A stretch of DNA of 64,000 bases. Origin: a virus. Its lineage: Duplodnaviria; Caudoviricetes. The stretch covers positions 32,001-96,000 of the IMG/VR virus record IMGVR_UViG_3300031867_004305; one strand, 5' to 3'. Below the pieces are notes generated by a model, which was not told the DNA's origin, made no database searches, and worked only from the letters and a program-made list of their open reading frames with translations. The position numbers and the translations under genes are program-made. Shown here piece by piece: positions 12,001 through 58,688 of the stretch; within the stretch, counting starts at the first letter, position 1; every line of letters begins with the position of its first letter.

Positions 12001-13609
12001 CTTCTGCCAATTCTTGCTGACTTACAGCTGTATTCGCGGCTAAATTAGAATAAACATCTACAACCGTAGAAGCCTCAGACATTTCCATTTTAAAACCACG
12101 AATGGCGGTTGTCATATAGTCAGTAGTTGTAGCATAATCTAATCCAGAAATCTTAGATAACTTTAATGTTTCATTTGTTAAATTTAAAACATCATTAGTT
12201 TCCAAACCTTGCTGATAGTAAATACGAGAAACTTCATAAGCACCTTTAATGGTAACACCATAATTCTGTGCCATAGCACTATAGGCATCTACTTGCTTCC
12301 ATAAATCAGCAGTAGTCATATCAGTAACTATAGCAATACCATTCATTACACTATCAAGTTCTTTGATATGATTCATCGCATCTCGTATAGCGGTTTTAGT
12401 TAAATTTAAAATCTGATTAAATCCCATAAAATTAGTAATAGCCATTTTTATGGAATTAAATGTTTGCTGTTGCTGCTGTAAACGCATAAAAGCAGCACTA
12501 GCTTGATCTAGTTGATTAGCAAATCCTTGTAATTGTCCTTGCATAGCACTTATGCTACCAACAAAAGCACTATTTGCACTTACATTCTGAACTGCTTCTC
12601 CACGTAATATTGCCAATGCTTGTGCAACACGCTCAATTTCTGCGTTATAATCTGACATTCCTTGACTTAAAGGAGTGCCATTAGCTTTCGCAGCATTCAT
12701 TTTATTATATAGATCTTCTACAGCTTTTTGTAAATTTTCATATTCCGCTACTTTTTGTTTAGCACCAGTTAAGTCTGAGCTATTCTTTTTAAAAGATTCA
12801 TCTAAATTTTTAAAAATATCATTAAAATTGCCCTTTTTAAACGCTTCATTAATTTTACCAAAACTTAGTTTTTGTAATGTAGCTATATCAGCATCGCTTA
12901 CTTCAAATTGTTCTTTTAATATTCGTAAAAATTCTTGTTTTCCACCTGACTTAAATCCAGTACCAGCTTTATTAAGCATTTCTCCCCAATCTTGTTGAGT
13001 AATGCCATTACTTAATAAATTTTTAGCTTTTCCAGTTGCTGTAGCTTGCTCAGTAACTGTATTATTTAATTCATCAAATTTAGCTTTAGCGTTTATTAAG
13101 TCTCCTTCAACTTTTTTAGTACCATTAGCAACAATAGCATCTATTTCATCAAAAGTTTTTCTTATACCATTTTTATCAAGTCTCTCTAAAGTAAGTACTG
13201 ACGCTGAATCTGCGAAAATACCTTGCTTAGTTTTTTCTTTAATACTATCTAATCTTTGCTCTGCTGTTACTATAGCTTGTTCTAAATCATTAAATGCTTT
13301 AGTCTGATTAGAATCAAGTTTAATATCAGAAAACTTTAAATTACCCATAGCTATTTGGGCTTTCATTAAAGTTTCTTCCATTTTCTCTATAGAACGTTCA
13401 GCTTGATCAAATTGTTTTCCAGAAGTAAATCCTTTAGAAGTTTGAACTTGAAATTTCTCCATTTCACGAGTCATTTCATTTATTATTTTAGATAAACCTT
13501 TAAATCCAGAACTATCTGGTTCTAAATGACTCAAAACTTTTTGCAATTCTGCTAAAGATGATTGCATAACATTTAATTTTACGCCAACATCTACAGTAAT
13601 TTGCGCCAT
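1..13609 (-). CDS. Tape measure protein, >4,536 aa, truncated by left window edge
   Basis: ATG at 13609 (MAQITVDVGVKL...) after an SD. The ORF track lists no ORF in this frame, consistent with no stop before the edge, and the segments I translated are open and in frame. Typical TMP core near 11.5-12.4 kb (ANTAVSQQELAEAMTRTASSMESVGSTFEETSAMIATM), a LVGELGPEL motif near 1.7 kb, and position downstream of the tail tube genes. Confidence 0.9.
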   Translation of the reverse strand, partial: MAQITVDVGVKLNVMQSSLAELQKVLSHLEPDSSGFKGLSKIINEMTREMEKFQVQTSKGFTSGKQFDQAERSIEKMEETLMKAQIAMGNLKFSDIKLDSNQTKAFNDLEQAIVTAEQRLDSIKEKTKQGIFADSASVLTLERLDKNGIRKTFDEIDAIVANGTKKVEGDLINAKAKFDELNNTVTEQATATGKAKNLLSNGITQQDWGEMLNKAGTGFKSGGKQEFLRILKEQFEVSDADIATLQKLSFGKINEAFKKGNFNDIFKNLDESFKKNSSDLTGAKQKVAEYENLQKAVEDLYNKMNAAKANGTPLSQGMSDYNAEIERVAQALAILRGEAVQNVSANSAFVGSISAMQGQLQGFANQLDQASAAFMRLQQQQQTFNSIKMAITNFMGFNQILNLTKTAIRDAMNHIKELDSVMNGIAIVTDMTTADLWKQVDAYSAMAQNYGVTIKGAYEVSRIYYQQGLETNDVLNLTNETLKLSKISGLDYATTTDYMTTAIRGFKMEMSEASTVVDVYSNLAANTAVSQQELAEAMTRTASSMESVGSTFEETSAMIATMVAVTRESANNIGSAMKSIASRYGELTKDPLTLVDAEGEVMAFNKVDSALQSVGISMKDTEGQFRDFTDVILELSDVWDQLSSVQQRYVATQFAGNRQQSRFLALVSNGDLLRENLEVANDSEDVGTLQALKALDSIESKLNQVQVAYQQFYTTLGAEDLWKGLLDGTTNFINTLNGLPKLFGKIPIGAATVIADAISLIKTVALNGLSAIATQFKSHLDGHVESLDLRGKGQKAGNDFNEGLRQGLSTSSSFSEINREIEVTKQRLNDLSDISKTIVFKRDSNGEIINPQVISNAITRLQDLKAITDEEAKSLRELANEGPEKALEKIKELAIANKEFAGSLTQIKNQKIYDSLLDFSSALNIVANVMDKSTDSSRIFAGSLMFVSGAIKGISSVMKAMETKGPFPWVTVAMAAITAINGIATAIETPQEKLERLNKEAEELSNTAKQVKADEKTLQTGIDKVNELKEKRYESAEAAEEYQKAVDDLADSFPQLISGFDSSGNIIIETANAEEMLAAARQKTLQATYDAAVGEQKANQQKMLTTANEIKNLNNRSGEITDNSFSFDDTANSTRLADRAYGMLRNAMGGFLNFDEVGQYLEGILNQDTSADYLRDIVERSGAKIDLDQIKDISSFSTEINKSIQAYNEAGKKIPDSLQGLNELANLLLSSDFSTEQSLETSQAIVKDFINHLDNYDFNSEFGQQKLNEFLEAYNSLSEETKELINKNFDVSQLNKLNVELANLSGENAGLRNSVVSSYLLLDKSLEENWKFLNENTQGALLLTRQLSSIWGQDKNNNKTWEQFKETDDFKNALNEYYKGYNDLNKEQKDILEKIGNDTSAFTANDVKKELNLDESNKAINEAIDNLYTSTEDSIERLNNIFNTYSEPIYDTTSGEKIDETLPTALGKLKTSLEKRDLSSNALDFISAQVKQIDELEKQGFVQAAGELSNNTSNLINALYQDNISAFDRNSIINILNQSNLNTTEGIEEAISSIESSGADQSVIKSTVKQLEARKQRIVDNVALSIQSELDSLLEKAEDDTKILSKATSGMTMKEANELVNKAKGWGVDLDIGSDIISNGDKLILSEQAFNEIQQKYGEHINEAAEKVQENLKKAQSAGLLDSNNQVSIPDVEEVLSEEMREFLSANGFNYDETTKKYLDSNGQVLINEANQLTEAGQKTIELLFENIFNGLEDYGMAVEQIQAMIFQQENWNKGDYSSLLNGQFMKKPNQKSRKQARITGIPALETFDTEAFNKYLSGTERYDAANQPELKVAVEKARGGVDTLLSDLLSKGIDNFNITDYANTGIESSTFNEMSAAIKDWQDSYEDFVRNYANLTGKNATEIDALIAQARAKDYENNAYDALKDVIDSFDNFSYEAGQKLARSIDGVSLEDFDVNTVTGELSSSYENMLNILNNSALDKTSKQYLELRGKLESANAKIDNTARFVDIVSKRDKLTEENVATLAEIFGTSYDFISNLIKKEDDGTYKMNLAELDRLIQTGKIKVTEELKQMIANEIDGIISSLTGLSSLQGKGTTSIEDMRKRVSSVNEQLGTSFDISALFEYDETVHGFVYSTTGLIASVQSLSQQLNSLSGDERWAAEQLINDTKRQFAEAIDITGFLGMANGDPARALKIDELQKAIEDYNAVLFALGETEGLNADNIISALKDGGENAVKAAEEIAKAQGTTLSDSDIEAAYRNEVANFVNAIDTVIAKPGEIIDSATAEIIALSGGKVNELGESGQYVVETAANLYEAYNNLLTRLEATGEATLADLNKVAALALENRDGEQAAIDALGDATGMTFTRFGEILADAGIQLTETMINDLETSGIIDLMGGNKMRIADFSRFADLMGWDANSEEYVSAFKTYNDSLIEMNRKAENNILEEVNALGDAKGGDWLNLTQLSERLETALEGKIVNKGAYDVPAFDNFIDILNSMGGHLQDGILKLDSEANIPGILSTIASYAQQYGGLLQSDMAQLADTLDSVLQSYVDAISKGISGKLSNSDAFNLQQMVDSLDMNVNLEFTKTAEGMKLTKQSAIELYQELQKIDSLKAQLVFDDLYDSLTGDLGGGFDSMSDTMATIAETQKQIRENWYEIRKLEAEDPGDARAQRLRQQNAELENQLDLYNQIANKQAGDPDSYNFMNGKLPDYLQGPANYWDSVGKAYKTMNEAASAGTIDLTDYYNIVNEMSNLAAMSGQLEVDGQKFASSAEMASYLIEQGANALTNVDGEGVKVDLSRLGVNFVTGANNMQDNFQDGIKAMAESQIAMLDAAIQVMETVVAMEKLGDIDVDSDGLLNLGEIFNGTTDAAGDFTKGYTEWADSIYKVTHDPKAENYNEDLAKALDHLSINGTSLKDMIYAARSGLENAADAWKDLGMTEEQYAKVINSFYQAARNGDYNLENVTESVWDILEQTLPDGTVIKTGQRSVVVSGKTHYVIDWESEEVSDALALVAKEHPELTGNQEELQRELEEAFTAYSQGKATEIQVKSVLVARGLIEVDPETGDITVDGQTYKADSPAAKKAIAEASLKAAGAENIETEMSTDETERKKTEIKSHGTLTIGQTTIDVLADENGNVKYIGPNGKEYGSIKELKDGLIEERYQKELQNQSDKLGALSETEREAEEVKIKKRITAQVEYEFSDQTDNTVNGTQKQIGEYLQKDEETRRTEIENAITEALKKGPDEQGQYTAEIPGGIEVTGFEEELTTDKVLENIEKSYDPEGVVSKIADGIGKAFEGEAGAQIGAKIAEGLTTALAGAEGETQEILIPEITIKPNKINFNTENISKAAEQDLNADVPEIPLATAKATVETLEITSVTSSKLSDGTVIDLTDAVNAKGTAGSLELTAAGIEATLAEGNPIKISGAIDSTGTAGTLTITLNEGQNGELEHSGDVDVGSVGNTTGNSEQLTIEATNKKLSEENPDVGQIGSITGTSNDAKINATSYQITFVGENGSSNTVVVNGTANLVATLAQYGVGFDANGNLTNVGKYNVDVEPNDTNVDLTTTANMDGAEAAVNTWAANKVVQIQVKTASVDGATTEVEADPILATELKNVTDFDSLSVQIQVSGAENGISTLEQYKAKIQEVLDAGQQLNSIDLTNIQTLSAAGLIDINLPTATSTIDNLEITGANNATYDGTLTLTEDISEGQGNISNLTVGATNLTANSGLAALQGMDFSTTSSSLLGVQQGVGKISRASFSNFSDLSGMLEVIKSQVESIWDTVKQFANQTFTVTLQQQSGTTNTDTETTENKTVNTTQNTTVNVDTSGAQGSAKALSTAAASMGASLTVAATKVKNLATAATKIPNKAAAVQSLASAIKDIPSRSSLVSNLASAMKQIPDVASRVKGIADALNRIPTSKSFSMDVTVNVKATGAGTGGGIEKFEFPPKAKGNVALSKGTGPALAGGRRTLVGELGPELVVSGGKYYVVGQNGAEFVDLAPDAIVFNHLQTRELLKHGSSSRGDAVTSEKNAVALAGGTSGPAMASASAALSALKQLRAMWESLATASAKDLGALAGRGGKGGGGGGGCFVAGTPIATRNGFKNIEDIEVGDIVLSYNEETRKNEYSEVLQTMIHDVEEDIYTLHIEDEELVVTGIHRFLIGNEWIPASALATGNLVRFADGTLHAISEIDIEEMAIRVYNFEVSNNHNYYVGNNSILAHNKGGGGGGGGGADDNGENRAVTAEIQRWYNLTRQIAKAEKDITYQQALRSKYQSDFVVNGDKIYATYQKELAILRKEVRNQKELVELQKSWYDAKRKELEASDYGKIFTYDENGLQQYVGSGAPGSGRGLDILEKLNERDVNGQPINNAKSARAQLKYLRSVGFNLSDLLYNDDGTKAAKSINQNTLAVKKNNSKDKKNDIYVKMMENFWNNIDGWRDELDNLYDSYNDTLTNIEENQTKQNEILQELRDNELDIEQELLKAIESRQQALIDEKTELKDALKDASDAYISGLSEALDKERKQYEQNQGKDELTKLQRQLAILQR
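971..1369 (-). other. HINT (pretoxin-HINT/BIL-like) autoprocessing domain inside the tape measure protein, 133 aa
   Basis: In frame with the TMP: GGKGGGGGG|CFVAGTPIAT...LVVTGIHRF...VYNFEVSNNHNYYVGNNSILAHN|KGGGGGGGG. Shows block A Cys1, block B TxxH, block F/G and terminal His-Asn. Confidence 0.92.
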
Positions 13610-34713: not shown

Positions 34714-34836
34714 GTCTGCGTTAACTTTCTGGCCGGGCATCAACTTAACATAGAATTAACTTGACTTCTTACAAAATCTATGCTATACTATATACAACAA
34801 GTGAAGGAAACACTTTAAAACCAGGAAGGTAAGAAA

Positions 34837-35100
34837 ATGAAGAAGATTATTACTATTGCTTTGATTATCACTCTGTGCTTGACTCTCACCGCGTGCCAAA
34901 TTGGCAATCGCAAAATCGGTTTCGACACTACGCAAACTTTCCGTTGGGCTATTGTTCAATTGGGCAACGGTGAACTGATTGAAGGTTCTGTAGATTCTTG
35001 GCGAGACTTTGACAACTCTGACACTATTCAAGTTACTATTAATGGCATTACTTACTTAACTCACTATAGTAATGTCATCCTAACGACCGAGAAGCCTTAA
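34837..35100 (+). CDS. Lipoprotein
   Basis: Signal peptide with lipobox LTAC. Confidence 0.7.
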   Translation: MKKIITIALIITLCLTLTACQIGNRKIGFDTTQTFRWAIVQLGNGELIEGSVDSWRDFDNSDTIQVTINGITYLTHYSNVILTTEKP

Positions 35101-35197
35101 TAGCTTCTCGGTTATATTTATGTTAAATTCGCAGCCGGCCCGTGACTTAACAAACAATTAACTTGACTTCGCATCAAAAATATGCTATTATATATAT

Positions 35198-35370
35198 GTC
35201 GAAAGGAAAGAGGGAGTGATTCCATTGGGTTAGAGTAAGGGGCAACAGACCACTTGGCGGTGGAGAACTGACCTCACGATTACATGAAAACCGTTCCCCA
35301 TTAACCTTGGGCAAGTTAATGATGTTTGAAGCCTACCGCGAGAGACTGATCAACTCTCGCGGTTTGTTAT
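35198..35370 (+). ncRNA. Candidate structured ncRNA (~170 nt)
   Basis: Promoter TTGACT-17-TATTAT at 35163, no credible ORF, several stems, ends in terminator ACCGCGAGAG..CTCTCGCGGT-TTGTTATTT. Confidence 0.55.
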
Positions 35371-35900
35371 TTTAATGTTAATTTTCTGGCCGGCCAGAAA
35401 TGTTAATTCTATGTTAACTATCCTAAAAACACTTGACATTTTATTTTACTTATGATATAATAATTACAGAAAACAAACGAGAGGAGACATCCTAAAATGA
35501 CAAAGCACAATTTCATTTCTACATGGGAAGATCTGAGCGATCAGGAACAAGTTTACATGTGGTGGGAATATAACGCGGCGAACCCTAATGAGGAAATTTC
35601 ATTTTCTGAGTTCGATGAAATGATGGCGGGATTCACTTTCGAGTGAATCCCATTTCATTTTAATTTTTAATTTAATGTTAAGGTACTGGTCGGCCAGCGA
35701 GTTAGTCATAACTAACCCACCTCTTTTTTATTTATTATACCATTCCAATTTCATTTTCGCAAGCACAATAATGTTAATTTCATTTTAAATTTTCACCCGG
35801 CCCGAAATGTTAAATCCAGGTTAAATCATCCTTTAACCTCTTGACTTTTGCCGTCGCCTGCTGTATAATATATACAGAAAGAGGAAAGGAAGTAAACAAA

Positions 35901-36341: not shown

Positions 36342-36672
36342 CAGAACTTTAACATTCGGCCCAGCCCGCAATTTAACACATAATTAACTTGACTTCATAC
36401 ATAATTTTTGCTATACTATATACAGAAAGAGGGAATGAAAGATGAATGAACTTGATAACATTCGTGTGTGGATTATGCGTCAACCTGCTTCTCCCGCAAT
36501 TCGCACAATGCGACTTCACCTATTCGATCTCTATCGTTATGGCGAAGAATACGAAAAGATTTACCAAATGGTAGAAGAACTAACAAATAATTAACTTGAC
36601 ATCCTCTCCAAACTCTGCTATAATAAGTACATAAGAGAAGGAAAACTCTTCCAAACCAGAAAGGGAAACAAC

Positions 36673-38485: not shown

Positions 38486-38679
38486 TTTATTTGCTCCCTT
38501 CGCTTTTCTATATATAGTATATACCAGTATGCTTATAATGTCAAGTTAATTTTATGTTAAGTTTCGGGCCGGGTGATTGTTAATTTCATTTTAAGTTATT
38601 ACCCGGCCCGCCAATGTTAAATCCAGGTTAACTTTCCCATTAAGCACTTGACATTTCATTCAGATTCTGCTATACTATA

Positions 38680-38726
38680 TACAGTTGAGGGCGAGGGAAA
38701 CACTTCCCAAAACCCGAGACAACTTC
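38680..38726 (+). ncRNA. Candidate short ncRNA, module 1
   Basis: Promoter at 38649, no ORF before the next promoter, AGTTG/CAACT closing stem. Confidence 0.4.
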
Positions 38727-38773
38727 ACGAAATCTTAACTTGACAAGGTTGGGAAATCGTGATATAATGAGGA

Positions 38774-38903
38774 TGTTGAGAGGACAAGAGCCAACTTGAA
38801 TAAAAATGGCCACAAACAGACTGCCAAGTAGAGAACGGGATTTATGAGCGTACACCTTTGGTTAAGGCACTGTTATTGTCTCCCGAAATAAAAACTCTCA
38901 ACA
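38774..38903 (+). ncRNA. Candidate structured ncRNA (~130 nt), module 1
   Basis: Promoter at 38740; closing stem TGTTGAGAG/CTCTCAACA; inner GACAA/TTGTC, AACAG/CTGTT and TGCC/GGCA; possible pseudoknot CGGGA/TCCCG. Confidence 0.55.
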
Positions 38904-38993
38904 AACTCTTAACTTGACATTATACCAAATCTGTGGTATAATAAATACATCAAAGGGAAGGAAAACCCACCAAACCAGAAAGGACAAAACACT

Positions 38994-39329
38994 ATGAAGA
39001 AGAACACCATCACCGCTCTGTACAACTACTTCGTGAACTCCGACGACACCATCGACCTGTCCGCTGTGGTTGAGGACATTCGTGCTGAGTATGAGCGTAC
39101 CACCGCGAAGTCTCAGGAGAAGGCTAACGCCTACGATACCGCGAAGCCCATCGTGTTCGGCGTCATGACTGAGCCGATGACGGTCAAGGAGATTTTCGCC
39201 AAGTGCGAGAACGACCTGCCCGATGGCTTCACCTCGCACAAGATCCAATATGCTTTGCTGAACTACTGGTGCGACGAGGTTGCCAAGATTGACAACGGCA
39301 AGGCTCCCTTCACCTACATGGTGAAGTGA
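38994..39329 (+). CDS. Paralog family B protein (helical N-terminus, winged-helix-like C-terminus)
   Basis: MTVKEIF..C...LPDGFTSHKIQY.LL...DEV.K motif shared with 42528 and 43451. Confidence 0.75.
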   Translation: MKKNTITALYNYFVNSDDTIDLSAVVEDIRAEYERTTAKSQEKANAYDTAKPIVFGVMTEPMTVKEIFAKCENDLPDGFTSHKIQYALLNYWCDEVAKIDNGKAPFTYMVK

Positions 39330-39517
39330 GACTAAACCGCCCTTCGGGGCGGTTTTCTTTTACATTTCATTCTGTTAAGTTTTCGTTAATTTTCGGGCCG
39401 GGCGTGGAGTTAACAATCATTTAACTTGCCCGGCCGCGAGTTAACACAATCTTAACTTGACTTTTATTCCTGGCGAATGTATAATAGATACAGAAATTAG
39501 GAAAGGAACTAAACAAA

Positions 39518-40228
39518 ATGATTCTTAACATCACTGACCGTTACATTCTGATTCTGGACGTTGAAACCGCAAACGACACCATCGACGCTATTGTCTATGA
39601 CATTGGCTTCATGTTGGTTGACCTTTACACAAACGCAATCTGTGAGCAGGGTTCTTTCGTAATTCGTGACACTTTCGTTTATGAACGCGAACTCGTAAAG
39701 GTTGCCTACTACGGCGATAAGATTCCTGAATACGTCGCAGACATTCAGCAGGGAAAGCGTCAAATGATTGACTTTTTGACGGCAAGGCGTCATATTCTTA
39801 ACTTGATGGAAAAGTATGATTGCCATACGGTTGGGGCGTACAATTGTAACTTTGACCGCAACGCTCTTAACACAACTCTCCGTTTCTTAACGAAATCTAA
39901 ATATCGCTACTTCTTCCCTTACTCTACTAATTTTGTGTGTATTTGGAATATGGCTTGCGATACCATCTGTCAGACAAGCGAATATAAAACGTTTGCCGAG
40001 ACTAACCGCCATTATTCCAATCATGGCAAAAATTATCGTGCCACCGCAGAGGTTGTTTACTCATTCTTAACAAATAACCCTGACTTCCACGAGGAACACA
40101 AAGGTTACGATGATGTTAAGATTGAAAAGGAAATTATGGAAAAGTGTCTGGAATATGACAAGAACTTTAAGGGAATAAAAAGAAACTGTTGGCAAAAAGT
40201 CAAACGGGGAGCACTCGCTCTCCGTTAA
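39518..40228 (+). CDS. DEDDh 3'-5' exonuclease
   Basis: LDVET, AYNCNFD and EEHKGYDD motifs. Confidence 0.85.
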   Translation: MILNITDRYILILDVETANDTIDAIVYDIGFMLVDLYTNAICEQGSFVIRDTFVYERELVKVAYYGDKIPEYVADIQQGKRQMIDFLTARRHILNLMEKYDCHTVGAYNCNFDRNALNTTLRFLTKSKYRYFFPYSTNFVCIWNMACDTICQTSEYKTFAETNRHYSNHGKNYRATAEVVYSFLTNNPDFHEEHKGYDDVKIEKEIMEKCLEYDKNFKGIKRNCWQKVKRGALALR

Positions 40229-40332
40229 TTTTATGTTAAGTTTCGGGCCGGCCGACCTTTACACAGAATTAACTTGACTTCTCTCTTGAATTTTGATATA
40301 CTATATATAGAAAAAGAAAGGAGATTTCAACT

Positions 40333-40587
40333 ATGACTGTTAAGGAATTGATTAAGGAACTCCAGAAAATGCCCGAAGATGCTGTTGTACTCGGCGATAT
40401 GTATCTTAATCAGTATTGCGTTATTGATACAGTTGAATATGATGACGCGACGAACACCATCTCGTTCTATGGCGAGGATACTTTTGAAGAACCTGACATT
40501 CCCGATGATGTAGACGAGACTAACTACGACCCCTACTGCGGTTGTGATATGTTTGAAATCTGCGGATCAATTGATGAGGAATGGTAA
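40333..40587 (+). CDS. Small acidic protein
   Basis: MTVKELIKEL start, Asp/Glu-rich, own promoter. Confidence 0.7.
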   Translation: MTVKELIKELQKMPEDAVVLGDMYLNQYCVIDTVEYDDATNTISFYGEDTFEEPDIPDDVDETNYDPYCGCDMFEICGSIDEEW

Positions 40588-40691
40588 TTAACCATTCCTT
40601 AACATTGGCCGGCCCACCATTTAACACAATCTTAACTTGACTTCCGCGTGCGAATCGTGTATAATTATATCAGAAAGTGAGGAATGCCATT

Positions 40692-40847
40692 ATGTTAGCG
40701 TTTAGCATTATTATTTTCATTTGGGGACTGTCGGGAATTTGTGGGTTGATAAATTGTAAAAAAGAAAGGATAATTTGGGAACTCTTAATTTTTGGAATTA
40801 TGATTCCTTTTCTACCTGTTTTTGCTAAACTATGTGGTTTAATATAA
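40692..40847 (+). CDS. Two-TM micro membrane protein
   Basis: Manual translation MLAFSIIIFIWGLSGICGLINCKKERIIWELLIFGIMIPFLPVFAKLCGLI. Confidence 0.6.
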   Translation: MLAFSIIIFIWGLSGICGLINCKKERIIWELLIFGIMIPFLPVFAKLCGLI

Positions 40848-40908
40848 ACTTAACTTGACTTTTATTTCCCTATCTGTTATAATAATTCCAGAAAGTGAGG
40901 AAACGCAA

Positions 40909-41049
40909 ATGGAAAAGAAAAATCAGAACCGCGAAACTTGGGTCGGCTATCGCCCCTCCGTCATTCCCGCGAAGAAGAAGAACAAGAAACGCGACCGCAA
41001 AGAAGGCAAGCAGATTTGCCGTAATGCTATGAAAGGAGAAAAGGATTAA
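40909..41049 (+). CDS. 46-aa basic peptide
   Basis: Promoter at 40855, SD; RPSVIPAKKKNKKRDRK. Confidence 0.6.
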   Translation: MEKKNQNRETWVGYRPSVIPAKKKNKKRDRKEGKQICRNAMKGEKD

Positions 41050-41762
41050 TGAGCTTTTGGAAAAAACAAGAATATTGGTATATTATTGATGAAAAATTTT
41101 TCGGATATAACCCTTATTGGTGGGGCGGTTGTGCGGTTGATAATAATTTAAATGGAAATAATAAAGGACTATATAGAACAATATGTCGCGTAGCAAAAAA
41201 TAAAAAACGTAAATCTCGCATAATAGAAAGGAAAATAAAAAATGCGAACCAATCTTGAAATCGCCGCCGAACTTATCGCCGCGGACGTCCGTAATCTCAA
41301 TAATATTGAGGAATATTGTGGCTATCCCGATTTCAATCGGCTTGATGGTATTGAACGCGACAAACTTTCTAAAATGGTTGATGAACTATTAATCATTATC
41401 TATCGGCGGCAAAACCGCCAGCGAATGGAATGGGAGAATAGTTAGTTCTCCCTAACTCCGCCCGGCCCGAGATTTAACAAACTTTTTACTTGACTTTTCC
41501 TGGATTTTGTGTTATAATAATTATAGAAAGTGAAAGGAGAAAGTCAAATGATTATTAACATCACTATTGACACCGATAACAATTTTGTTTGGGCAGTAGA
41601 TGAAAATCAGGAAACCAGCATTGACTATTCCGCGTGTGATCTTTCCGCAATATCCGTAGAAGAAATTATTAACGATTTCTTAACTTGACTTCTCCCGTCG
41701 AATCTGCTATACTATATCCAGAAGGTGAAGGAAAACACCACAAACCAGAAAGGATAACGCCC

Positions 41763-42167
41763 ATGAGTAAGGCTTCTCTTGAAACTGAAATCCGCAACAA
41801 CGTTCTCCAGACCATCATTGACGCCGTGAATCCCATCAGCGACATTCTCCCGATTAGTGCCAGCGAACTCGCTCTCCCCATCGTTGACAGCGAGGGCAAC
41901 GAAAAGTTTGCCGTTATCAAAGTCAGCATTCCTCGCGGTGAGCGTGACGGCAACGGCGGTTACATCCCCTTTGACGGTTACGCCGCCGCCGAGGATTGGA
42001 AACTGGTACTTGCGGATCGTGCCGATAAGGCGGCGAAACGCAAGGAAAAGGCGGAACGTGCCGAAAAGGAAAAGGAAAGGAAACGACAGGCACGCAAGGT
42101 TGTAAAAGACCTTAACACGGTGGGCTTTAAGGCTCTCGTGTCCCAGCCGATTAATGAGGGTGAGTAA
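41763..42167 (+). CDS. Paralog family A protein
   Basis: Alignment by eye; leader motif. Confidence 0.75.
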   Translation: MSKASLETEIRNNVLQTIIDAVNPISDILPISASELALPIVDSEGNEKFAVIKVSIPRGERDGNGGYIPFDGYAAAEDWKLVLADRADKAAKRKEKAERAEKEKERKRQARKVVKDLNTVGFKALVSQPINEGE

Positions 42168-42278
42168 TCACCCTCTTTGTTATTTTTATGTTAATTTTCA
42201 GGCCGGCCCGCTTTGTTAAGATTGTGTTAAATACTCCTAGAACTACTTGACTTTGAGTGGAGATTCTGCTATACTAAT

Positions 42279-42339
42279 ATTGTTGAGAGGGCAAGAAAAC
42301 CTCAAGACAAAAGGGTGAAAGTCCCACCCCTCTCAACAA
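42279..42339 (+). ncRNA. Candidate short ncRNA, module 2
   Basis: Promoter at 42248; 12-bp closing stem TTGTTGAGAGGG/CCCTCTCAACAA. Confidence 0.55.
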
Positions 42340-42527
42340 AATCTTAACTTGACAAACTCCAAGATTTCTGCTATAATGATTACATCAGAGAGGGAAACGA
42401 GAGGTTCAAAGTTCGAGAGGTTCCGAGAGAACTTAACAGAGACTTAACTTGACAAACTACTCCCAATCTGATATAATAAAGACAAGAGAGGGGAAGGAAA
42501 ACCCCACAAACCAGAAAGGGAATCATT

Positions 42528-42923
42528 ATGAAGAACACCATGACTTATGCCGTCGCTCTGTCCACCGCTATCGAGACCATGAAGGACACCAATCCCGAAG
42601 TTGCGGAGCGTCTGACCGCTCTGCGTGCGACCCTTGCGAAGCGTTCCCAGCGTAGCGAGGATTCCAAGGCTAAGGCTTCTGCGAAGCGGAAACAGCAGAA
42701 CGCCGAGAAGCGTGCCGAGATGTGTGCGGAGATCGTGCCGATTCTGCGTGAGGTCATCACCACGGACATGACCGCGAAGGAAATCTTCGCCGTTGCTCAG
42801 GATCGTCTGCCGAAGGACTTCACCGCGAACAAGGTTCAGGCGATTCTCCTGCGTGAGATGAAGGACGAGGTTATCAAGACCGAGACCAAGGGCAAGGCGA
42901 ACACCTATCGCCTTGCGGAGTGA
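42528..42923 (+). CDS. Paralog family B protein
   Basis: TAKEIF...LPKDFTANKVQAILL...DEVIKTETKGKANTY. Confidence 0.75.
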   Translation: MKNTMTYAVALSTAIETMKDTNPEVAERLTALRATLAKRSQRSEDSKAKASAKRKQQNAEKRAEMCAEIVPILREVITTDMTAKEIFAVAQDRLPKDFTANKVQAILLREMKDEVIKTETKGKANTYRLAE

Positions 42924-43086
42924 TAGAAGGGGCTAACGCCCCTTCTTTTTTTTATGGCGAGTTAGCCAGGACTAACTCGGCCGGGTAATGTAAAATGTTT
43001 GTTAAGTAATCGCCCGGCCCGCGATTTAACATAATCTTTACACAGAAAAGTATTGACAACCAGCGGATTTTCTGCTATACTATTAT

Positions 43087-43174
43087 TGTCGGTGGGGGAA
43101 ACGGGAGCGCGCAGGCGCAAGCGCGTTGTGGTAATTAGAAACATGCAACAGTTGATCGGCCACCTAAAGCCGAC
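43087..43174 (+). ncRNA. Candidate GC-rich ncRNA, module 3
   Basis: Promoter at 43053; GTCGG/CCGAC closing stem; internal GCGCGC..GCGCGT hairpin; no ORF. Confidence 0.5.
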
Positions 43175-43230
43175 TTAACAAAATCTTAACTTGACATTAC
43201 AGCCTAAAAGTGCTATAATGAATACATCAA

Positions 43231-43349
43231 GGGGAGCGAACGTGGCATCAGGGGAGCCACCACGGTAAGTCGCAAGACGATTGCGTAGGCCACTTGCAAA
43301 AGAGGGTCGTCCCATGAGGGATGGAGTTCAATTCTCCCGCTCTCCACCA
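43231..43349 (+). ncRNA. tRNA-like RNA with alanine-type acceptor (G3:U70), extra arms and encoded CCA
   Basis: 5' GGGGAGCG pairs with CGCTCTCC, followed by A-CCA; T arm GGAG-TTCAATT-CTCC; promoter TTGACA-17-TATAAT at 43191. Confidence 0.7.
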
Positions 43350-43450
43350 GATTATAACAGAATCTTAACTTGACAAATAGTTGAGAATCTGATATAATAA
43401 ATACATCAAGAGGACAAGGAAAAGTCCTAAAAACCAGAAAGGGATTTACT

Positions 43451-43840
43451 ATGAAGAATACCATCACTCGCGTTGACGCTCTGAACTACGCTATCAATGC
43501 CATCGACCAGTGTACCGAAACCGATGTTGAGGTCGTCGCTATCCTCGAGAAGATTCGCGATCAGATCGCGAAGCCTCGCAAGACCAGCGACACCGCCAAG
43601 GCGAACGCCAAGGCGAAGCGTGCGAACGCTCGTGCGGAACTGATGAAGGATGTTCTGCCCATCCTGCGGGATGCTCTGACCGAGGGCGGTACCGCCAAGG
43701 AAATCTTTGAGCGGTGTGCCGATATGCTCCCCGAAGATTTCACCAGTGCCAAGGTACAGTACATTCTGCTTCACGAACTGGCGGACGAGGTCGTTAAGAC
43801 CGAAGCCAAGGGTAAGGCGAATGTCTACACCCTGCGGTAA
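43451..43840 (+). CDS. Paralog family B protein
   Basis: TAKEIFERC...LPEDFTSAKVQYILL...DEVVKTEAKGKANVY. Confidence 0.75.
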   Translation: MKNTITRVDALNYAINAIDQCTETDVEVVAILEKIRDQIAKPRKTSDTAKANAKAKRANARAELMKDVLPILRDALTEGGTAKEIFERCADMLPEDFTSAKVQYILLHELADEVVKTEAKGKANVYTLR

Positions 43841-43974
43841 AAACAGAGGGCGAAAGCCCTCTGTTAATTTTTTGTTAAAAATCGGGCCGGGCCGTTAGTT
43901 AACCAAATCTTTACTTGACTTCTATCAAAATTGGGAGTATAATAATTATAGAAAAAAGAAAGGGGATACCGATT

Positions 43975-44471: not shown

Positions 44472-44546
44472 CAAATCCCAAATCCTGTGCTATAATATAA
44501 TCAAGAAGTGAAGGAAAACACTTACAAACCAGAAAGGGTCTACACT

Positions 44547-44882
44547 ATGAAGATTTCCAAGGCTATCGTCGATTCCAACATCCGCACCGCTATCTTCAAT
44601 GCTCTGAACGTTGCCAACATCGAAGGATTCCACAAGATCAACGACCGCCAGTATGGTTGTATCGTTGAGGATGTCAACGGCGAACGTCGCTACGCTCGCG
44701 TGGGTGTCATCGTTGCCGAGGTCCGCGAGGACTGTACCGCCGATGAACTGATGGCGTCTGAGATCGCGGACTACAACGCGAAGCAGGAAGCCAAGGCGAA
44801 GCGTGCCGAGGAACGCAAGGCGAAAGCCGAGCGTGACAAGGCGAAGCGTGAAGCCACCAAGAAGGAAAAGGAAGGGGAGTAA
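44547..44882 (+). CDS. Paralog family A protein
   Basis: Ends KEKEGE like 36673; leader motif. Confidence 0.75.
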   Translation: MKISKAIVDSNIRTAIFNALNVANIEGFHKINDRQYGCIVEDVNGERRYARVGVIVAEVREDCTADELMASEIADYNAKQEAKAKRAEERKAKAERDKAKREATKKEKEGE

Positions 44883-46591: not shown

Positions 46592-46898
46592 TTGACTATA
46601 GTATAAATTTATGTTATAATTATTTTAGAAAGGGAGGGTTATATTACACGGCAAGCTGGAAACGGGCCCGCGAGCTGGAAGCTGGACAAGCTGGATACGA
46701 GCTGGAAGCTGAATCACCGGCCAGCTGGAACCAACGCCACACGAGCTGGAAATTCCTGGCCAGGCTGGCGAGCTGGAAAGCTGATGCCAAGTATTTGACA
46801 AGCTGGAACTTTCTGGCCCGTTAGGAGCCATATAGAAGCTGGAATTTTTTAAAAAAAATATCCCATTCTAGTATAACATAAATTATTTATTTTGTCAA
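46592..46898. repeat. AGCTGG(AA) direct-repeat array between convergent sigmaA promoters
   Basis: About 10 perfect and 3 near-perfect copies at 46654-46843; TTGACT-17-TATAAT (+, 46592-46620) and TTGACA-17-TATACT (-, 46898-46870). Confidence 0.8.
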
Positions 46899-47016
46899 AT
46901 AAATAATTATTTTTTATTTTAAAATAAAATTTTTTTATTTATTAAAATAAATTAAAATAATTTAAAAATAATTAAAATACTTTTCTTTTGAGAAAATAAA
47001 AATTGGAGGTACGAAA

Positions 47017-51481: not shown

Positions 51482-52627
51482 ATGGAACTTTTGAATTATA
51501 TTAACTCTCATGAAAATTGGGAACAAGAACTTTCTCAGATGCCATATTCACTTAAAATTTCTCACAATGGCCCTTATGTACTTTTTAAGTATCAGCAATT
51601 TCTTTCTGATATGGGTCTACGTATCTGTCAAGAAGCACGTGGTGCTATTTTTCGCAAGGATGAAGAAGGCCATTATGTGCCTATTTCTGTTGCTCTGTGG
51701 AAGTTCTTCAATGCGACCGAACCTTATGCTGATACTGACATACTAGATTGGAATAGTGCCATTATCAGTGAAAAAGTTGATGGTAGTCTTTGCCGCCTAG
51801 CCTACGACCATTACGATAAGATTTGGCTTTTGTCTAGCAATGGTACTATTTTTGCACGCGATGTAGACGCAGGAAATACCAATTTTGAAGAAATCTTTAT
51901 CCACATTTTAGGCGGCAAAAAGAAATACGAAGAACTATTAGAAAAGTTGAATAAAGATTATTGTTATTTCTTTGAAATGGTCTCTCCTTATAATGTAATT
52001 TGTATTCATTATAATGAACCTGCTATTTACTATCTGGGCCGTCGTAATATGATTACTATGAAAGAAGATGACTATGTATTGAAGTTTGATAATATCAAGC
52101 ATCCTAAGACATATAAGTTATTTTCTTTGAGTGATTGTACTCGTGCGGCCGAAGAGTACAAAAACGATTTTGAGGGATTTGTAGTGCGTGATGCAGAATG
52201 GCATCGTGTAAAAATCAAAACTCCTTGGTATATTGCCATCCACAAAATGCGTGGTAATGGCCCGCTGACTGTTCTGCGTGTGGTAGAAATGTTTCAGGCT
52301 GGAACTCTTGATGATTTTGTTGCTTACTATCCCGAGTTTAAGGATTTCACTGATGATGTGGTTCAGCGTATTCGCTACTACATTGAAGTGTGTGATACTG
52401 CGTTCAAGGTAGTTATTAGTGTTGTAGGAGCAATGGGTGAGCGTCGTGATTTTGCTATGTATGCGAACACCTATATGCCTATCGTGCGTTCTTTCCTATA
52501 CGCACGGCTAGATGAAAAGGTGAAGGATGGTAGCGATTACCTGATGAATATGCGTGCACGCACTCTGGCTTCTTACATTATGGCAGAAATGGAAACGACC
52601 AAGATTGGAGCAGTAGAAGATGAATAG
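51482..52627 (+). CDS. RNA ligase (T4 Rnl1-like)
   Basis: EARG, KFFN, EKVDGS (KxDG), FEMVS and EGFVV..KIK motifs. Confidence 0.85.
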   Translation: MELLNYINSHENWEQELSQMPYSLKISHNGPYVLFKYQQFLSDMGLRICQEARGAIFRKDEEGHYVPISVALWKFFNATEPYADTDILDWNSAIISEKVDGSLCRLAYDHYDKIWLLSSNGTIFARDVDAGNTNFEEIFIHILGGKKKYEELLEKLNKDYCYFFEMVSPYNVICIHYNEPAIYYLGRRNMITMKEDDYVLKFDNIKHPKTYKLFSLSDCTRAAEEYKNDFEGFVVRDAEWHRVKIKTPWYIAIHKMRGNGPLTVLRVVEMFQAGTLDDFVAYYPEFKDFTDDVVQRIRYYIEVCDTAFKVVISVVGAMGERRDFAMYANTYMPIVRSFLYARLDEKVKDGSDYLMNMRARTLASYIMAEMETTKIGAVEDE

Positions 52628-52880
52628 AGCATGTGAAAGATATTTTCAAGAAGATATTTTAGAGCCCGATAACACTACTGTGCGACAAGCATATTATGCT
52701 GGTTTTCGCCGTGCCTATAATCTAACAGGCAGACAGGCAGAATGGAAGCGTGTGGATAATATGGCAGTTTGTACTAACTGCAATTGTGCTGTAGATAAAT
52801 ATATTAGTATCCATTATGACTTCTGCCCGCGATGCGGTATGAGAATGTGGGAACATAACAATGAAAAGGAAAAAGTATAA
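52620..52880 (+). CDS. Zn-ribbon protein
   Basis: CTNC...FCPRCG. Confidence 0.65.
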   Translation: MNRACERYFQEDILEPDNTTVRQAYYAGFRRAYNLTGRQAEWKRVDNMAVCTNCNCAVDKYISIHYDFCPRCGMRMWEHNNEKEKV

Positions 52881-53371
52881 TGACTAATACAAAGAAAATT
52901 ACTTTTACTGCCATTGGAATTGCCTTGTATGTCGTGTTAAGTATGAGTATGAAGATACCGCTTATCGCACATATCAGTCTTGATTTAGGCTATATTGCTT
53001 TTGCACTTTATTGTTATCATTTCGGTACAATTTCTGGAATGATTGTCGGCGGAGTTGGATGCGTTTTAATTTCCCTAATTACTACCGGTTGGTTCCCGCC
53101 AGGATGGTTTCTTGGTAATTTAGTTATTGGTTTAATTTGCGGCTGCCTTTATAGGCATAATGCTACTATTAATAACATTATTATTACTATCATTGCGGTA
53201 GCGATTGGCATTTTAGGAATTAAAACAGTAATAGAATGTAAACTATATGGTATCCCTTATGCTGTAAAGATTCCAAAGAATGCTATTGCTTTTATTACTG
53301 ATGCGATTGTAATGAGTGCAGGTACTTTATTCGCACGAAATAAAACAATTGAGAGGATTTGCCATGAATAA
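52880..53371 (+). CDS. ECF transporter S component-like membrane protein
   Basis: About 5 TM segments; ITFTAIGIALYVVL (AxxxA), ISLDLGY, G...G..VG. Confidence 0.75.
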   Translation: MTNTKKITFTAIGIALYVVLSMSMKIPLIAHISLDLGYIAFALYCYHFGTISGMIVGGVGCVLISLITTGWFPPGWFLGNLVIGLICGCLYRHNATINNIIITIIAVAIGILGIKTVIECKLYGIPYAVKIPKNAIAFITDAIVMSAGTLFARNKTIERICHE

Positions 53372-57223: not shown

Positions 57224-57806
57224 TTGTCAAACCTTGTCCTAATTGTGGCCGTCTACCCAAAATCAAAGAAGGTTGTCGTCGTAAAAACGGTAATCGTTTT
57301 TATATGATTGGTTGTCCTAATTTATGCTTTGTATTGAAAACAAAAGATAGATGGACTGGATATCATGCGGCTTGGCTTTCATTTGAAGGCGATTATGATT
57401 ATAATATGATGTATAAAAAATGGAACGAGGAATTAGAAAGTGAGTAAATTTTGCTGTGTTTGCGGCTGCGAGATTAAGGAGCATGAACCTTATTATTGTG
57501 TTGCACCCAATACCTTTACTTGCTTCAGCGATGAATGCCATACTAAGTATCGGTGGGATTTGCTCGCGGCCAGATATGTGGTGCCTGGACAACATGAATA
57601 TTTTGTTGTCAACGGTAAACTCTATCAGATTGGCTCTGATAAGGATGAACCTCGTGGTATGAGCAGCCGCTTCTATGTTATAATGTTTGAAGATAATCAT
57701 GTAGTTACCACACGTTCTCTTTGGTTCATTGGCGACGTCCCGAAATCCAAGCGTAAGATTTTTAAGCAGAATGCGTACTTTATTCAGAAAGGAGCATGTG
57801 GAGATT

Positions 57807-58688
57807 ATGCCTGAATTTGTTATGACGGTCGGTATTAGCGGTAGTGGTAAGAGTCGTTGGTGCTATAATCAGCATAACATTGCCACCGATATAGTGGCGG
57901 ATTCCGATGAAATCAGGAAAGAGCTGTGGGATGATGCTAATGACCAGCAGAACCCCGATAAGGTATTTAGTGAAATGTTCGCACGCACTAAGTCCGCTCT
58001 TTCTCATAATATCAATGTTTTTTACTGTGCGACTAATCTTGCGATGAGGCATCGTATTCATACTCTCAAGCAGATTAAGCGTCTTTTTCCTGATGTAAAG
58101 TGCCGTGCCGTTGTATTTAATACTCCTCTTTCCATTTGTAAGGAATGGAATAAGAAGCGTGAACGTCAGGTTCCTAATTGGTTGTTTGAGCGGCAGATTA
58201 AACAATTCCAGATGCCTGTATACAATGAGGGCTGGGATTCCATTGGAATAGTTACTCCCGCGGAATATGATGTAAAGAAGTTCGCAGAAAATATGTGGAA
58301 CGATGTGCGTGCGACAGGCTCGCAGGATAATCCGCACCACACTCTTTCTCTATACGATCATCTGCTTGATTGTATTAATAAGGTTAGTGTTACTGGTCTG
58401 TCTTATAACGAGCAGATAAATATGTATTCCGCCGCAGGAATACATGACATTGGCAAAGCTTACACTCGTAGTTATGATGGAAACGGAATAGCACATTACT
58501 ATTCTCATGATAACTACGGTGCATATCTTGCTATGAATATGGGACTACCTATTGAAGTTATTCAACTGGTTTGTTACCATATGAAGCCTTATGATACCAA
58601 CGCTTCTTATGTATGGGAAAAGCGTTTGGGGGAAGAATTGTGGAAGAAAGTTCTTATTCTACATGATGCGGACGAAAGGAGCCATTAA
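57807..58688 (+). CDS. Polynucleotide kinase (P-loop) fused to an HD domain
   Basis: GISGSGKS, DSDEIR, ATNL; HH...H...HDIGK...H. Confidence 0.85.
   Translation: MPEFVMTVGISGSGKSRWCYNQHNIATDIVADSDEIRKELWDDANDQQNPDKVFSEMFARTKSALSHNINVFYCATNLAMRHRIHTLKQIKRLFPDVKCRAVVFNTPLSICKEWNKKRERQVPNWLFERQIKQFQMPVYNEGWDSIGIVTPAEYDVKKFAENMWNDVRATGSQDNPHHTLSLYDHLLDCINKVSVTGLSYNEQINMYSAAGIHDIGKAYTRSYDGNGIAHYYSHDNYGAYLAMNMGLPIEVIQLVCYHMKPYDTNASYVWEKRLGEELWKKVLILHDADERSH

Follow-up and report, generated by a model that had tools for sequence, protein, structure and literature searches.

Stacked promoter-driven units without reading frames precede the genes of a predicted winged-helix family in a rumen phage

What is made from a promoter that has no gene behind it? 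The question is raised by a 64,000-nucleotide (nt) stretch of DNA, hereafter the window, which comprises positions 32001-96000 of IMG/VR record IMGVR_UViG_3300031867_004305, a single 181,042-base-pair (bp) virus record, rated complete, of an uncultured rumen phage. Between about 28 and 47 kb of the window lies an array of small genes, almost every one of which has its own promoter. Three paralogous genes in this array, B1, B2 and B3 of a family that we designate B, are each preceded by three stacked promoters, and the stretches between the promoters, here called units, are free of open reading frames (ORFs). Our favored explanation, to which we give a little less than an even chance, is that early stable-RNA cassettes are stacked in each module before a B gene and co-transcribed with it. 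The parts of the three modules, and of a related arrangement before a gene of a second family, A, are the following.

38648-38676 (+): promoter P1a, TTGACA-17-TATACT, TG-extended
38683-38739 (+): unit u1a, with a small hairpin, GGGAA/TTCCC
38740-38768 (+): promoter P1b, 12/12 consensus positions, TG-extended
38775-38913 (+): unit u1b, about 130 nt, predicted to be closed by GUUGAGAG (38775-82) pairing with CUCUCAAC (38895-902), 8 bp
38914-38942 (+): promoter P1c, followed by a leader hairpin (loop AAGGAAAA) and the ribosome-binding site ACCAGAAAGG
38994-39329 (+): gene B1, 111 amino acids, family B, predicted winged-helix protein
39334-39355 (+): intrinsic terminator, end of module 1
42247-42275 (+): promoter P2a
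42282-42348 (+): unit u2a, predicted hairpin RNA closed by GUUGAGAGGG/CCCUCUCAAC, 10-12 bp
42349-42377 (+): promoter P2b, 12/12, TG-extended
42384-42448 (+): unit u2b, unstructured polypurine with GAGAGG repeats, no start codon, longest ORF 0
42449-42477 (+): promoter P2c, with leader hairpin
42528-42923 (+): gene B2, 131 amino acids, modeled with a basic helix at residues 23-76 and a winged helix at 64-131
42925-42946 (+): intrinsic terminator, end of module 2
43053-43081 (+): promoter P3a
43088-43190 (+): unit u3a, predicted outer stem GUCGG/CCGAC and inner GC-rich hairpin
43191-43219 (+): promoter P3b, 12/12, TG-extended
43231-43349 (+): unit u3b, predicted tRNA-like RNA of 119 nt
43370-43398 (+): promoter P3c, with leader hairpin
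43451-43840 (+): gene B3, 129 amino acids
43842-43865 (+): intrinsic terminator, end of module 3
37880-37852 and 37773-37745 (-): stacked promoters before a family A gene
about 37847-37778 (-): unit uA, between these two promoters
37697-37374 (-): the family A gene

All nine promoters that an initial annotation of this DNA had placed before the B genes were recovered, none more than 1 nt from the coordinates it gave, and the second and third promoters ('b' and 'c') of every set are perfect 12/12 matches to the consensus with the TG extension. Open frames for the three B genes lie where it had put them, and their paralogy is borne out by identities of 50% (B2 and B3) and 28% (B1 and B2). The minus-strand unit that it reported before the family A gene is also present, between two stacked promoters. 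Across the window there are 56 sites that fit TTGAC-N18-TATAAT with no more than one mismatch, as compared with 2.95 expected, a count reached in 0 of 100 shuffles; these consensus promoters, together with strong Shine-Dalgarno (SD) sites, point to a Firmicute host. The only terminators in the modules lie behind the B genes, and as none stands between a unit and B, an RNA begun farther upstream has to extend across the next unit and B. No ORF preceded by an SD site was found in the six inter-promoter stretches, and the small ATG or TTG frames within them are lost in homologues, in agreement with their earlier description as ORF-free.

Directly 5' of TTGAC at every promoter between 28000 and 47000 of the window is the sequence TYAAC-N4-TCTTAAC, and the ordinary spacers of the array have in addition inverted GTTAA boxes flanking the palindrome GGGCCGGCCC. 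Proteins may bind this arrangement of TYAAC and GTTAA boxes, or it may act like an UP element.

At 73 related loci (denoted L and a number), all from rumen or gut metagenome assemblies, promoters were classed by the presence or absence of an SD-preceded ORF downstream. ORF-free units averaged 1.61 upstream of B1 genes, 1.20 upstream of B2, 1.57 upstream of B3 and 0.86 upstream of A2-type genes, as compared with 0.09 for 362 other genes of the same loci (0.00-0.10 for most named neighbors), with the proviso that loci of common ancestry do not supply independent events. The initial annotation had proposed looking for promoter units upstream of family B homologues in relatives, and at 1.20-1.61 per B gene they are there; a unit like uA is likewise present at 12 of 14 orthologous A2 genes. 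The unit-B module is a conserved trait of this phage clade and not a chance layout. The content of the modules is far from uniform, as the 261 units represent 182 distinct sequences in 78 clusters, which reduce to about 60-70 true unit families, many of them met just once or twice.

Do these units encode structured RNAs? Compared with shuffled sequences, u2a (z = -3.1, with a 10-bp terminal stem), u3b (z = -2.7) and u1b (z = -1.9, with an 8-bp terminal stem) are predicted to fold, as is u1a (z = -2.1), which has a small hairpin only. Paired 5' and 3' ends, previously credited to five of the six units, are clear in four (u1b, u2a, u3a and u3b) and weak in u1a, and u2b has none (z = +2.1). The unit RNAs, earlier said to differ from one another in sequence, are not unrelated: motifs near the predicted transcription start are common to units (GTTGAGAGG, ACATCA[A/G]...GGG and GGGAAAC) and the 3' arms overlap the TYAAC box. 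The first ~30 nt of u2a also resemble the B2 leader. Relatives carry three variants of u1b, two of u2a (too few for a covariation test), nine of u3a and twelve of u2b; in one variant of u3a the outer stem GTCGG/CCGAC is replaced by CAAGG/CCTTG (CAAGG/CCUUG in RNA) around a homologous interior.

The larger set of relatives revealed a scaffold common to the units. Nearly all begin at the predicted +1 with a purine-rich 5' arm, for example GTTGAGAGGG, GTTCCAAGGGG, GTTGAAGGGG or GTCGGTGAGGG, and most end with a complementary 3' arm directly before the next promoter. The duplex of a unit's own arms averages -13.9 kcal/mol, as compared with -9.7 kcal/mol for arms drawn from different families, a result obtained in 0 of 5000 permutations with one representative per family. 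Stems of 10-17 bp are found in about half of the families, and their inner part is family-specific. With closing stems beyond the permutations, and with the covariation described below for the tRNA-like family, the proposal that most units are structured fared well.

Inverted arms of the form GTTRR...YYAAC could also act in DNA, as sites for a DNA-binding protein, possibly B itself, or as attC-like exchange hairpins. The arms include the TYAAC box that flanks ordinary spacers as well (GTTAA...TTAAC around GGGCCGGCCC), wobble pairs show no significant strand asymmetry, and the winged helix of B is of the kind found in the repressors of many operators. However, the arms begin exactly at the predicted +1, and the covariation seen in the internal hairpins and tRNA-like fold would be superfluous for a protein-binding palindrome. 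The core motifs run in the reverse of the attC order, and no IntI-type tyrosine recombinase (PF00589) was found in the complete 181-kb genome by a search that recovered 14/14 positive controls. We give a DNA-level element only a slight chance of being the explanation.

The interiors of the units appear to matter as well. Where two phages hold units of the same family, the interiors are ~90% identical as compared with ~66% at the 4-fold sites of the downstream gene, the unit being the higher in 271 of 276 pairs, a comparison that sees only units that are still recognizable. Without the family filter, identity between upstream units is bimodal, at 0.5-0.6 (unrelated) or 0.8-1.0 with few values between, and 4-fold sites are unimodal; this implies that units are kept or replaced and do not drift. 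These patterns suggest strong constraint on the kept units, that is, purifying selection. One could nonetheless regard the units as debris, functionless leftovers of recombination from promoter to promoter in the form of emptied or truncated cassettes. Turnover is high, many families are seen once or twice, u2a opens like a B leader with no gene after it, and u1a is exactly a tRNA-Lys cassette minus its tRNA, so that for u1a at least the description as debris holds. Debris would not be expected to show the strong constraint on kept units, the recurrence of the closing stem across unrelated families, the covariation, or the enrichment before one gene family in place of a scatter, and no unit is homologous to a coding gene. 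We hold it highly improbable that debris accounts for the units.

Decayed ORFs were also considered as a source of the units, an outcome that the initial annotation had named as contrary to its reading, and rejected: none of the true unit families has a coding gene as a homologue, and the coding matches that arose were classification artifacts, a tRNA, or misclassified gene fragments.

Unit u3b resembles a tRNA. Its predicted acceptor has 8 bp (GGGGAGCG : CGCUCUCC) with a G3:U70 pair, discriminator A73 and an encoded CCA, and it also has a D-like hairpin, a 4-bp T stem with a UUCAAUU loop and a variable middle; there is no anticodon arm. Homologues retain the same parts with the middle replaced, giving lengths of 63, 71, 109, 119 and ~160 nt. 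In all four sequence types the acceptor and T stem stack to 12 bp (8+4 or 7+5) and ACCA is encoded, and the T-loops read UUCAAUU, UUCGACU or UUCAAAU. When seven members were aligned, 9 pairs were changed on both sides, as compared with 2.7 in shuffles (0 of 500), and 92.9% of cells pair, as compared with 43-60% with the structure slid. G.U occupies pair 3 in 7/7 aligned members; one further type (L003) is without G3:U70. The tRNA-like acceptor that had been noticed in one unit is present in u3b with its 8 bp and CCA, and covaries in the seven members.

This RNA is not a canonical tRNA. ARAGORN called 0 tRNAs and no transfer-messenger RNA (tmRNA) in the window. The Rfam tRNA model RF00005 found the tRNA cluster of the genome, 19 tRNAs that lie away from the B-unit array, at or above the gathering score, and nothing at genome 75231-75349, where u3b lies, even at E <= 1; a search with all Rfam models at E <= 10 likewise gave no tRNA row. 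The Rfam tmRNA models did not match u3b either, and the 63-160 nt family has no conserved reading frame. As judged from its sequence family, u3b is a covarying tRNA-like RNA with alanine marks, neither canonical tRNA nor tmRNA. The signature of a T-arm followed by ACCA occurs in 16/36 distinct upstream regions of B3, 3/25 of B1 and 0/39 of B2. Other relatives hold looser forms: at L054 395-505 and L058 1180-1292 a T-arm and then a D-arm-like hairpin lie within the closing stem, and the unit at L065 3465-3583 combines an acceptor, a D arm and a T arm with an aberrant middle and lacks CCA.

If u3b resembles a tRNA, related slots hold the real thing. In three independent relatives (L012/13, L040/41 and L053), ARAGORN identified tRNA-Lys(UUU) within unit slots ahead of B1-type genes, and in two others (L048 and L051) it identified tRNA-Asn(GUU) adjoining, just after, B3-type genes, at these positions.

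L012 6771-6845: tRNA-Lys(UUU)
L040 1849-1923: tRNA-Lys(UUU)
L053 1844-1919: tRNA-Lys(UUU)
L048 3894-3968: tRNA-Asn(GUU)
L051 2974-3048: tRNA-Asn(GUU)

The presence of true tRNAs suggests that the slots express RNAs that need to be excised from read-through transcripts. An ochre suppressor was excluded for the L012 tRNA, which ARAGORN reads as tRNA-Lys(UUU). The window's own u1a matches over its full length the leader joined to the trailer of the L040 tRNA-Lys(UUU) cassette, with the 75-nt tRNA exactly absent, and it appears to be an emptied tRNA-Lys cassette, unlike RNA cargo. Both tRNA-Lys and tRNA-Asn are known targets of anticodon nucleases. Two genes of the window bear on this point.

51482-52627 (+): T4 Rnl1-type RNA ligase (PF09511, E = 2e-13)
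57729-58688 (+): protein with an AAA_33 kinase and an HD domain

These look like an RNA (tRNA) repair pair. In phage T4, such a ligase and kinase pair mends tRNA-Lys cut by an anticodon nuclease, and the presence of repair-type genes in the window points to conflict over tRNA cleavage. A CCA-adding enzyme (PF01743) was not found in the phage.

The absence of terminators before B raises another possibility, that the units boost expression of B. They would be modular parts of its 5' untranslated region (UTR): extra strong promoters, together with a 5' stem or SD-like polypurine tract, would slow 5'-end-dependent decay of B mRNA in a Firmicute host, in the manner of STAB-SD and the SP82 polypurine stabilizer, and the interior as such would have no function. 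No terminator separates units from B, interiors are swapped freely, and an SD-like purine run opens every unit at the place where coding cassettes carry their ribosome-binding site. PMC3997798 lists the concept of such a stabilizer (its refs 106 and 179). In u2b, an unstructured polypurine without a start codon, the SD-like tract is accessible near the 5' end with no start codon after it, as in a STAB-SD element; u2b is a candidate SD-like 5' stabilizer and probably a polypurine leader only, unlike RNA cargo. As an account of the units at large, expression boosting is at odds with interiors kept at ~90% where synonymous sites are at ~66%, with internal helices that covary, and with slots occupied by true tRNAs and CCA-ended tRNA-like RNAs. 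In most units, moreover, the closing stem sequesters the purine run, a pairing that would keep the 30S subunit from binding. We consider this explanation unlikely.

We next turned to the B protein itself. Family B has at least 352 relatives in metagenome protein collections; a protein search found none in 50,697 GenBank phage records. Neither Pfam nor PHROGs gave anything above threshold for the A and B proteins, a sequence profile search of the PDB with B gave no match, and Foldseek of B against the PDB returned no row at E <= 0.001. ESM Atlas rows for B were unnamed viral clusters only; weak HARE-HTH and HTH_24 feature matches serve as leads only. In the B2 model (predicted local distance difference test score, pLDDT, 85), a Lys/Arg-rich helix of 54 residues is joined to a winged helix at the C terminus, as anticipated by the initial annotation, which took the B proteins to be basic and winged-helix-like. 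Residues 64-131 of B2 superpose on Z-alpha with Z 9.3 and a root-mean-square deviation of 1.2 A over 58 residues, and equally well on the DNA-binding domains of Fur/PerR, ArsR, MarR and PadR (Z 8-9.3 overall). On these models, we regard it as settled that the fold of family B is a winged helix, of a generic winged helix-turn-helix kind that fits DNA-binding regulators equally well. The family A model (pLDDT 90) has a helix, a three-stranded sheet and a long charged helix, and its structural search gave no informative neighbor (best Z 5.2, to the long helix only).

In an RNA-protein system, the earlier interpretation of the locus, B would bind the closing stem or tRNA-like fold and stabilize, deliver or use a variable RNA cargo. 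Units and B paralogues are tightly linked, and the linkage is conserved; the T-arm and ACCA signature is present in 16/36 distinct B3 upstream regions, and B joins its Lys/Arg-rich helix to a winged helix whose top structural rows include the RNA-binding winged helices of Z-alpha and Roquin ROQ. The fold match is generic, however, as Fur, PerR, ArsR, MarR and PadR score the same (Z 8-9). Aligned by eye, the residues with which Z-alpha contacts Z-form nucleic acid (Asn and Tyr of helix 3 and Trp of the wing) appear not to be retained in B: only an aromatic residue (invariant Y127) fits, and the positions of the Asn and Tyr are variable within the family. A2-type and a few other genes are also preceded by units, and no 5'-arm type is tied to a given B paralogue. 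An RNA-protein system of this kind is, in our estimate, very unlikely.

A common 5' leader was observed on the family A and B genes and one other gene, at 34790-34840, 36625-36672, 37744-37698 (-), 38943-38993, 41714-41762, 42478-42527, 43399-43450 and 44497-44549. It consists of a short hairpin followed by ACAAACCAGAAAGG; the stem varies by gene around the AAGGAAAA loop, and the stems covary. The GGA in the loop and the GGA in the ribosome-binding site are reminiscent of CsrA-type sites.

Taken as early stable-RNA cassettes, the modules would work as follows. Two to three near-consensus host sigma-A promoters would fire in series, each upstream one giving a short ORF-free RNA, and read-through via the next unit and B to the terminator would yield nested transcripts. 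Host RNases would then excise the folded elements, which would accumulate as small stable RNAs, with RNase P and 3' trimming acting on the tRNA-like element and the true tRNAs of relatives and other nucleases on closed stems. In most unit RNAs, a closing stem at the predicted +1 would shield the 5' end. What fills a slot varies by slot and phage: tRNA-Lys in relatives, anticodon-less alanine-type tRNA-like RNAs, or dozens of other hairpin RNAs, with whole cassettes exchanged through recombination between the repeated promoters. Early in infection the RNAs may act on host tRNA and translation or on defense, as a replacement tRNA, a tRNA mimic or a decoy. B would be a nucleic-acid-binding winged-helix protein from the same transcripts, either a partner of the RNAs or merely their downstream neighbor. 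Of this account, the compared genomes themselves display the module anatomy and how it is conserved, closing stems, constrained interiors, a tRNA-like fold and true tRNAs in unit slots.

Several observations pull against it. None of the units in the three B modules has its own terminator, so all could be 5' UTR. Three units fold little or no better than shuffles (u3a, z = -0.7; uA, z = -0.5; and u2b at the positive value given above). The outermost bases of the 3' arm coincide with the TYAAC box upstream of -35, and since the arm overlaps this promoter box, part of its complementarity is forced by the next promoter. A significant asymmetry of G.U over A.C would prove pairing at the RNA level, and the excess observed (21:11, p = 0.11) is not significant and comes mostly from one recurrent position. 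The ends of 23 short related contigs are not transcript-like, lying inside promoters or genes as in DNA assemblies. To these are added the common ancestry of the 73 loci and the restriction of the identity comparison to recognizable units.

Database searches were of little help in naming the units. The window has no Rfam match at gathering score (rows at E <= 10 were at chance level, the best being rli48 at 24.6 bits for a cut-off of 100), GenBank phage records gave no DNA match, and no antisense target of the units was found in the phage genome (best E 0.05).

A bolder extension of the stable-RNA account can be drawn. The clade may keep a fast-evolving early small-RNA library of dozens of families that share one scaffold, in which a swappable interior is carried by either a closing stem or an acceptor/T minihelix of alanine type. 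Its RNAs would form particles with B and mimic tRNA or host RNAs to disarm RNA-targeting defenses or seize translation; we think this quite unlikely as a whole. If true, it would be an RNA-based counterpart to protein anti-defense islands. Phage non-coding RNAs are poorly charted, and early small-gene regions are mostly read for proteins alone. Here, in phages of an important gut ecosystem, about 60 or more promoter-driven, putatively structured RNA families, including anticodon-less alanine-type tRNA mimics, occur beside tRNA-Lys cassettes and RNA-repair genes. Were these RNAs released and active, the repertoire of counter-defense and takeover would widen from proteins and whole tRNAs to RNA mimics, and the large unannotated family B would gain a function. 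If the units are only 5' UTR stabilizers, they would still supply a natural collection of strong promoters and leaders usable as parts in Firmicutes.

Other elements of the array and the window deserve mention. A further ORF-free promoter unit of 118 nt lies at 29410-29293 (-), in the minus-strand half of the array, and another of ~200 nt, with its own terminator, at 35192-35400 (+). The latter is kept in L004, L008 and L015, and one hairpin in it shows compensatory changes (ATTAAC..GTTAAT here, ATTGAC..GTCAAT in L008 and ATTGAT..ATCAAT in L004); the unit, which had no Rfam match, is probably a structured RNA that stands alone. In L008 the B gene is flanked by homing-endonuclease genes (GIY-YIG/NUMOD at 8688-9536 (-) and HNH/NUMOD4 at 10555-11070 (+)), which shows that mobile elements are active in the array. 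The region 46649-46850 and 46880-47000 contains about 10 copies of AGCTGGAA, between convergent promoters at 46592 (+) and 46898 (-), adjoined by a very A+T-rich palindromic stretch; these may be iterons and an unwinding region, a candidate replication origin. An open frame of more than 4536 codons (2-13609, -) runs off the window, and the phage encodes an ECF-type riboflavin transporter S component (PF07155, E = 1e-14) at 52880-53371 (+).

How does this locus compare with described systems? The full layout matched none of those compared, and each of them offers a partial likeness. In PMC11455837, phage tRNA-Lys (T5) is described as neutralizing PARIS and phage tRNAs as resisting anticodon nucleases (PMC10264068, as cited there). 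The relatives similarly place tRNA-Lys(UUU) and tRNA-Asn under strong early promoters, and the window has the Rnl1 ligase and the kinase/HD protein; unlike those phage tRNAs, the window's units include no true tRNA, and u3b, without an anticodon arm, cannot replace a decoding tRNA. Y RNAs (YrlA; PMC4201824) join a 5'/3' stem to a tRNA-like module, an organization approached here with the T-then-D order only in L054 and L058; in contrast, no Rfam match was found in the window and most units are without a T or D arm. Ro60/TROVE (PF05731) was absent from the complete phage record, with controls positive. The STAB-SD and polypurine stabilizers of Bacillus, listed under the refs 106 and 179 of PMC3997798 already mentioned, have an SD-like 5' purine tract and no start codon, which fits u2b and the 5' arms, whereas in most units the tract is paired and the interiors are conserved and structured. 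With the tRNA-like domain of tmRNA and the alanine minihelix, the u3b family has in common G3:U70, A73, CCA, a UUCRANY T-loop and a 12-bp acceptor-T stack; it differs from tmRNA in having no tag frame or pseudoknots, a length of 63-160 nt and a D-like hairpin. Integron cassettes and attC sites resemble the array as swappable cassettes with imperfect inverted repeats ending GTT/AAC, but here each cassette has its own promoter, the core motif order is reversed and there is no integrase. The T4 tRNA region, with its 'species 1 and 2' RNAs, and the T5 tRNA region contain extra small stable RNAs of obscure role. Unlike those regions, the modules described here provide a consensus promoter per RNA, are stacked before one protein family in an early small-gene array, and consist mostly of closed-stem RNAs without a tRNA shape. 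What they have in common with the T4 and T5 regions is the combination of phage tRNAs with tRNA-like stable RNAs, co-transcribed and, as we infer for this phage, cut out by host RNases.

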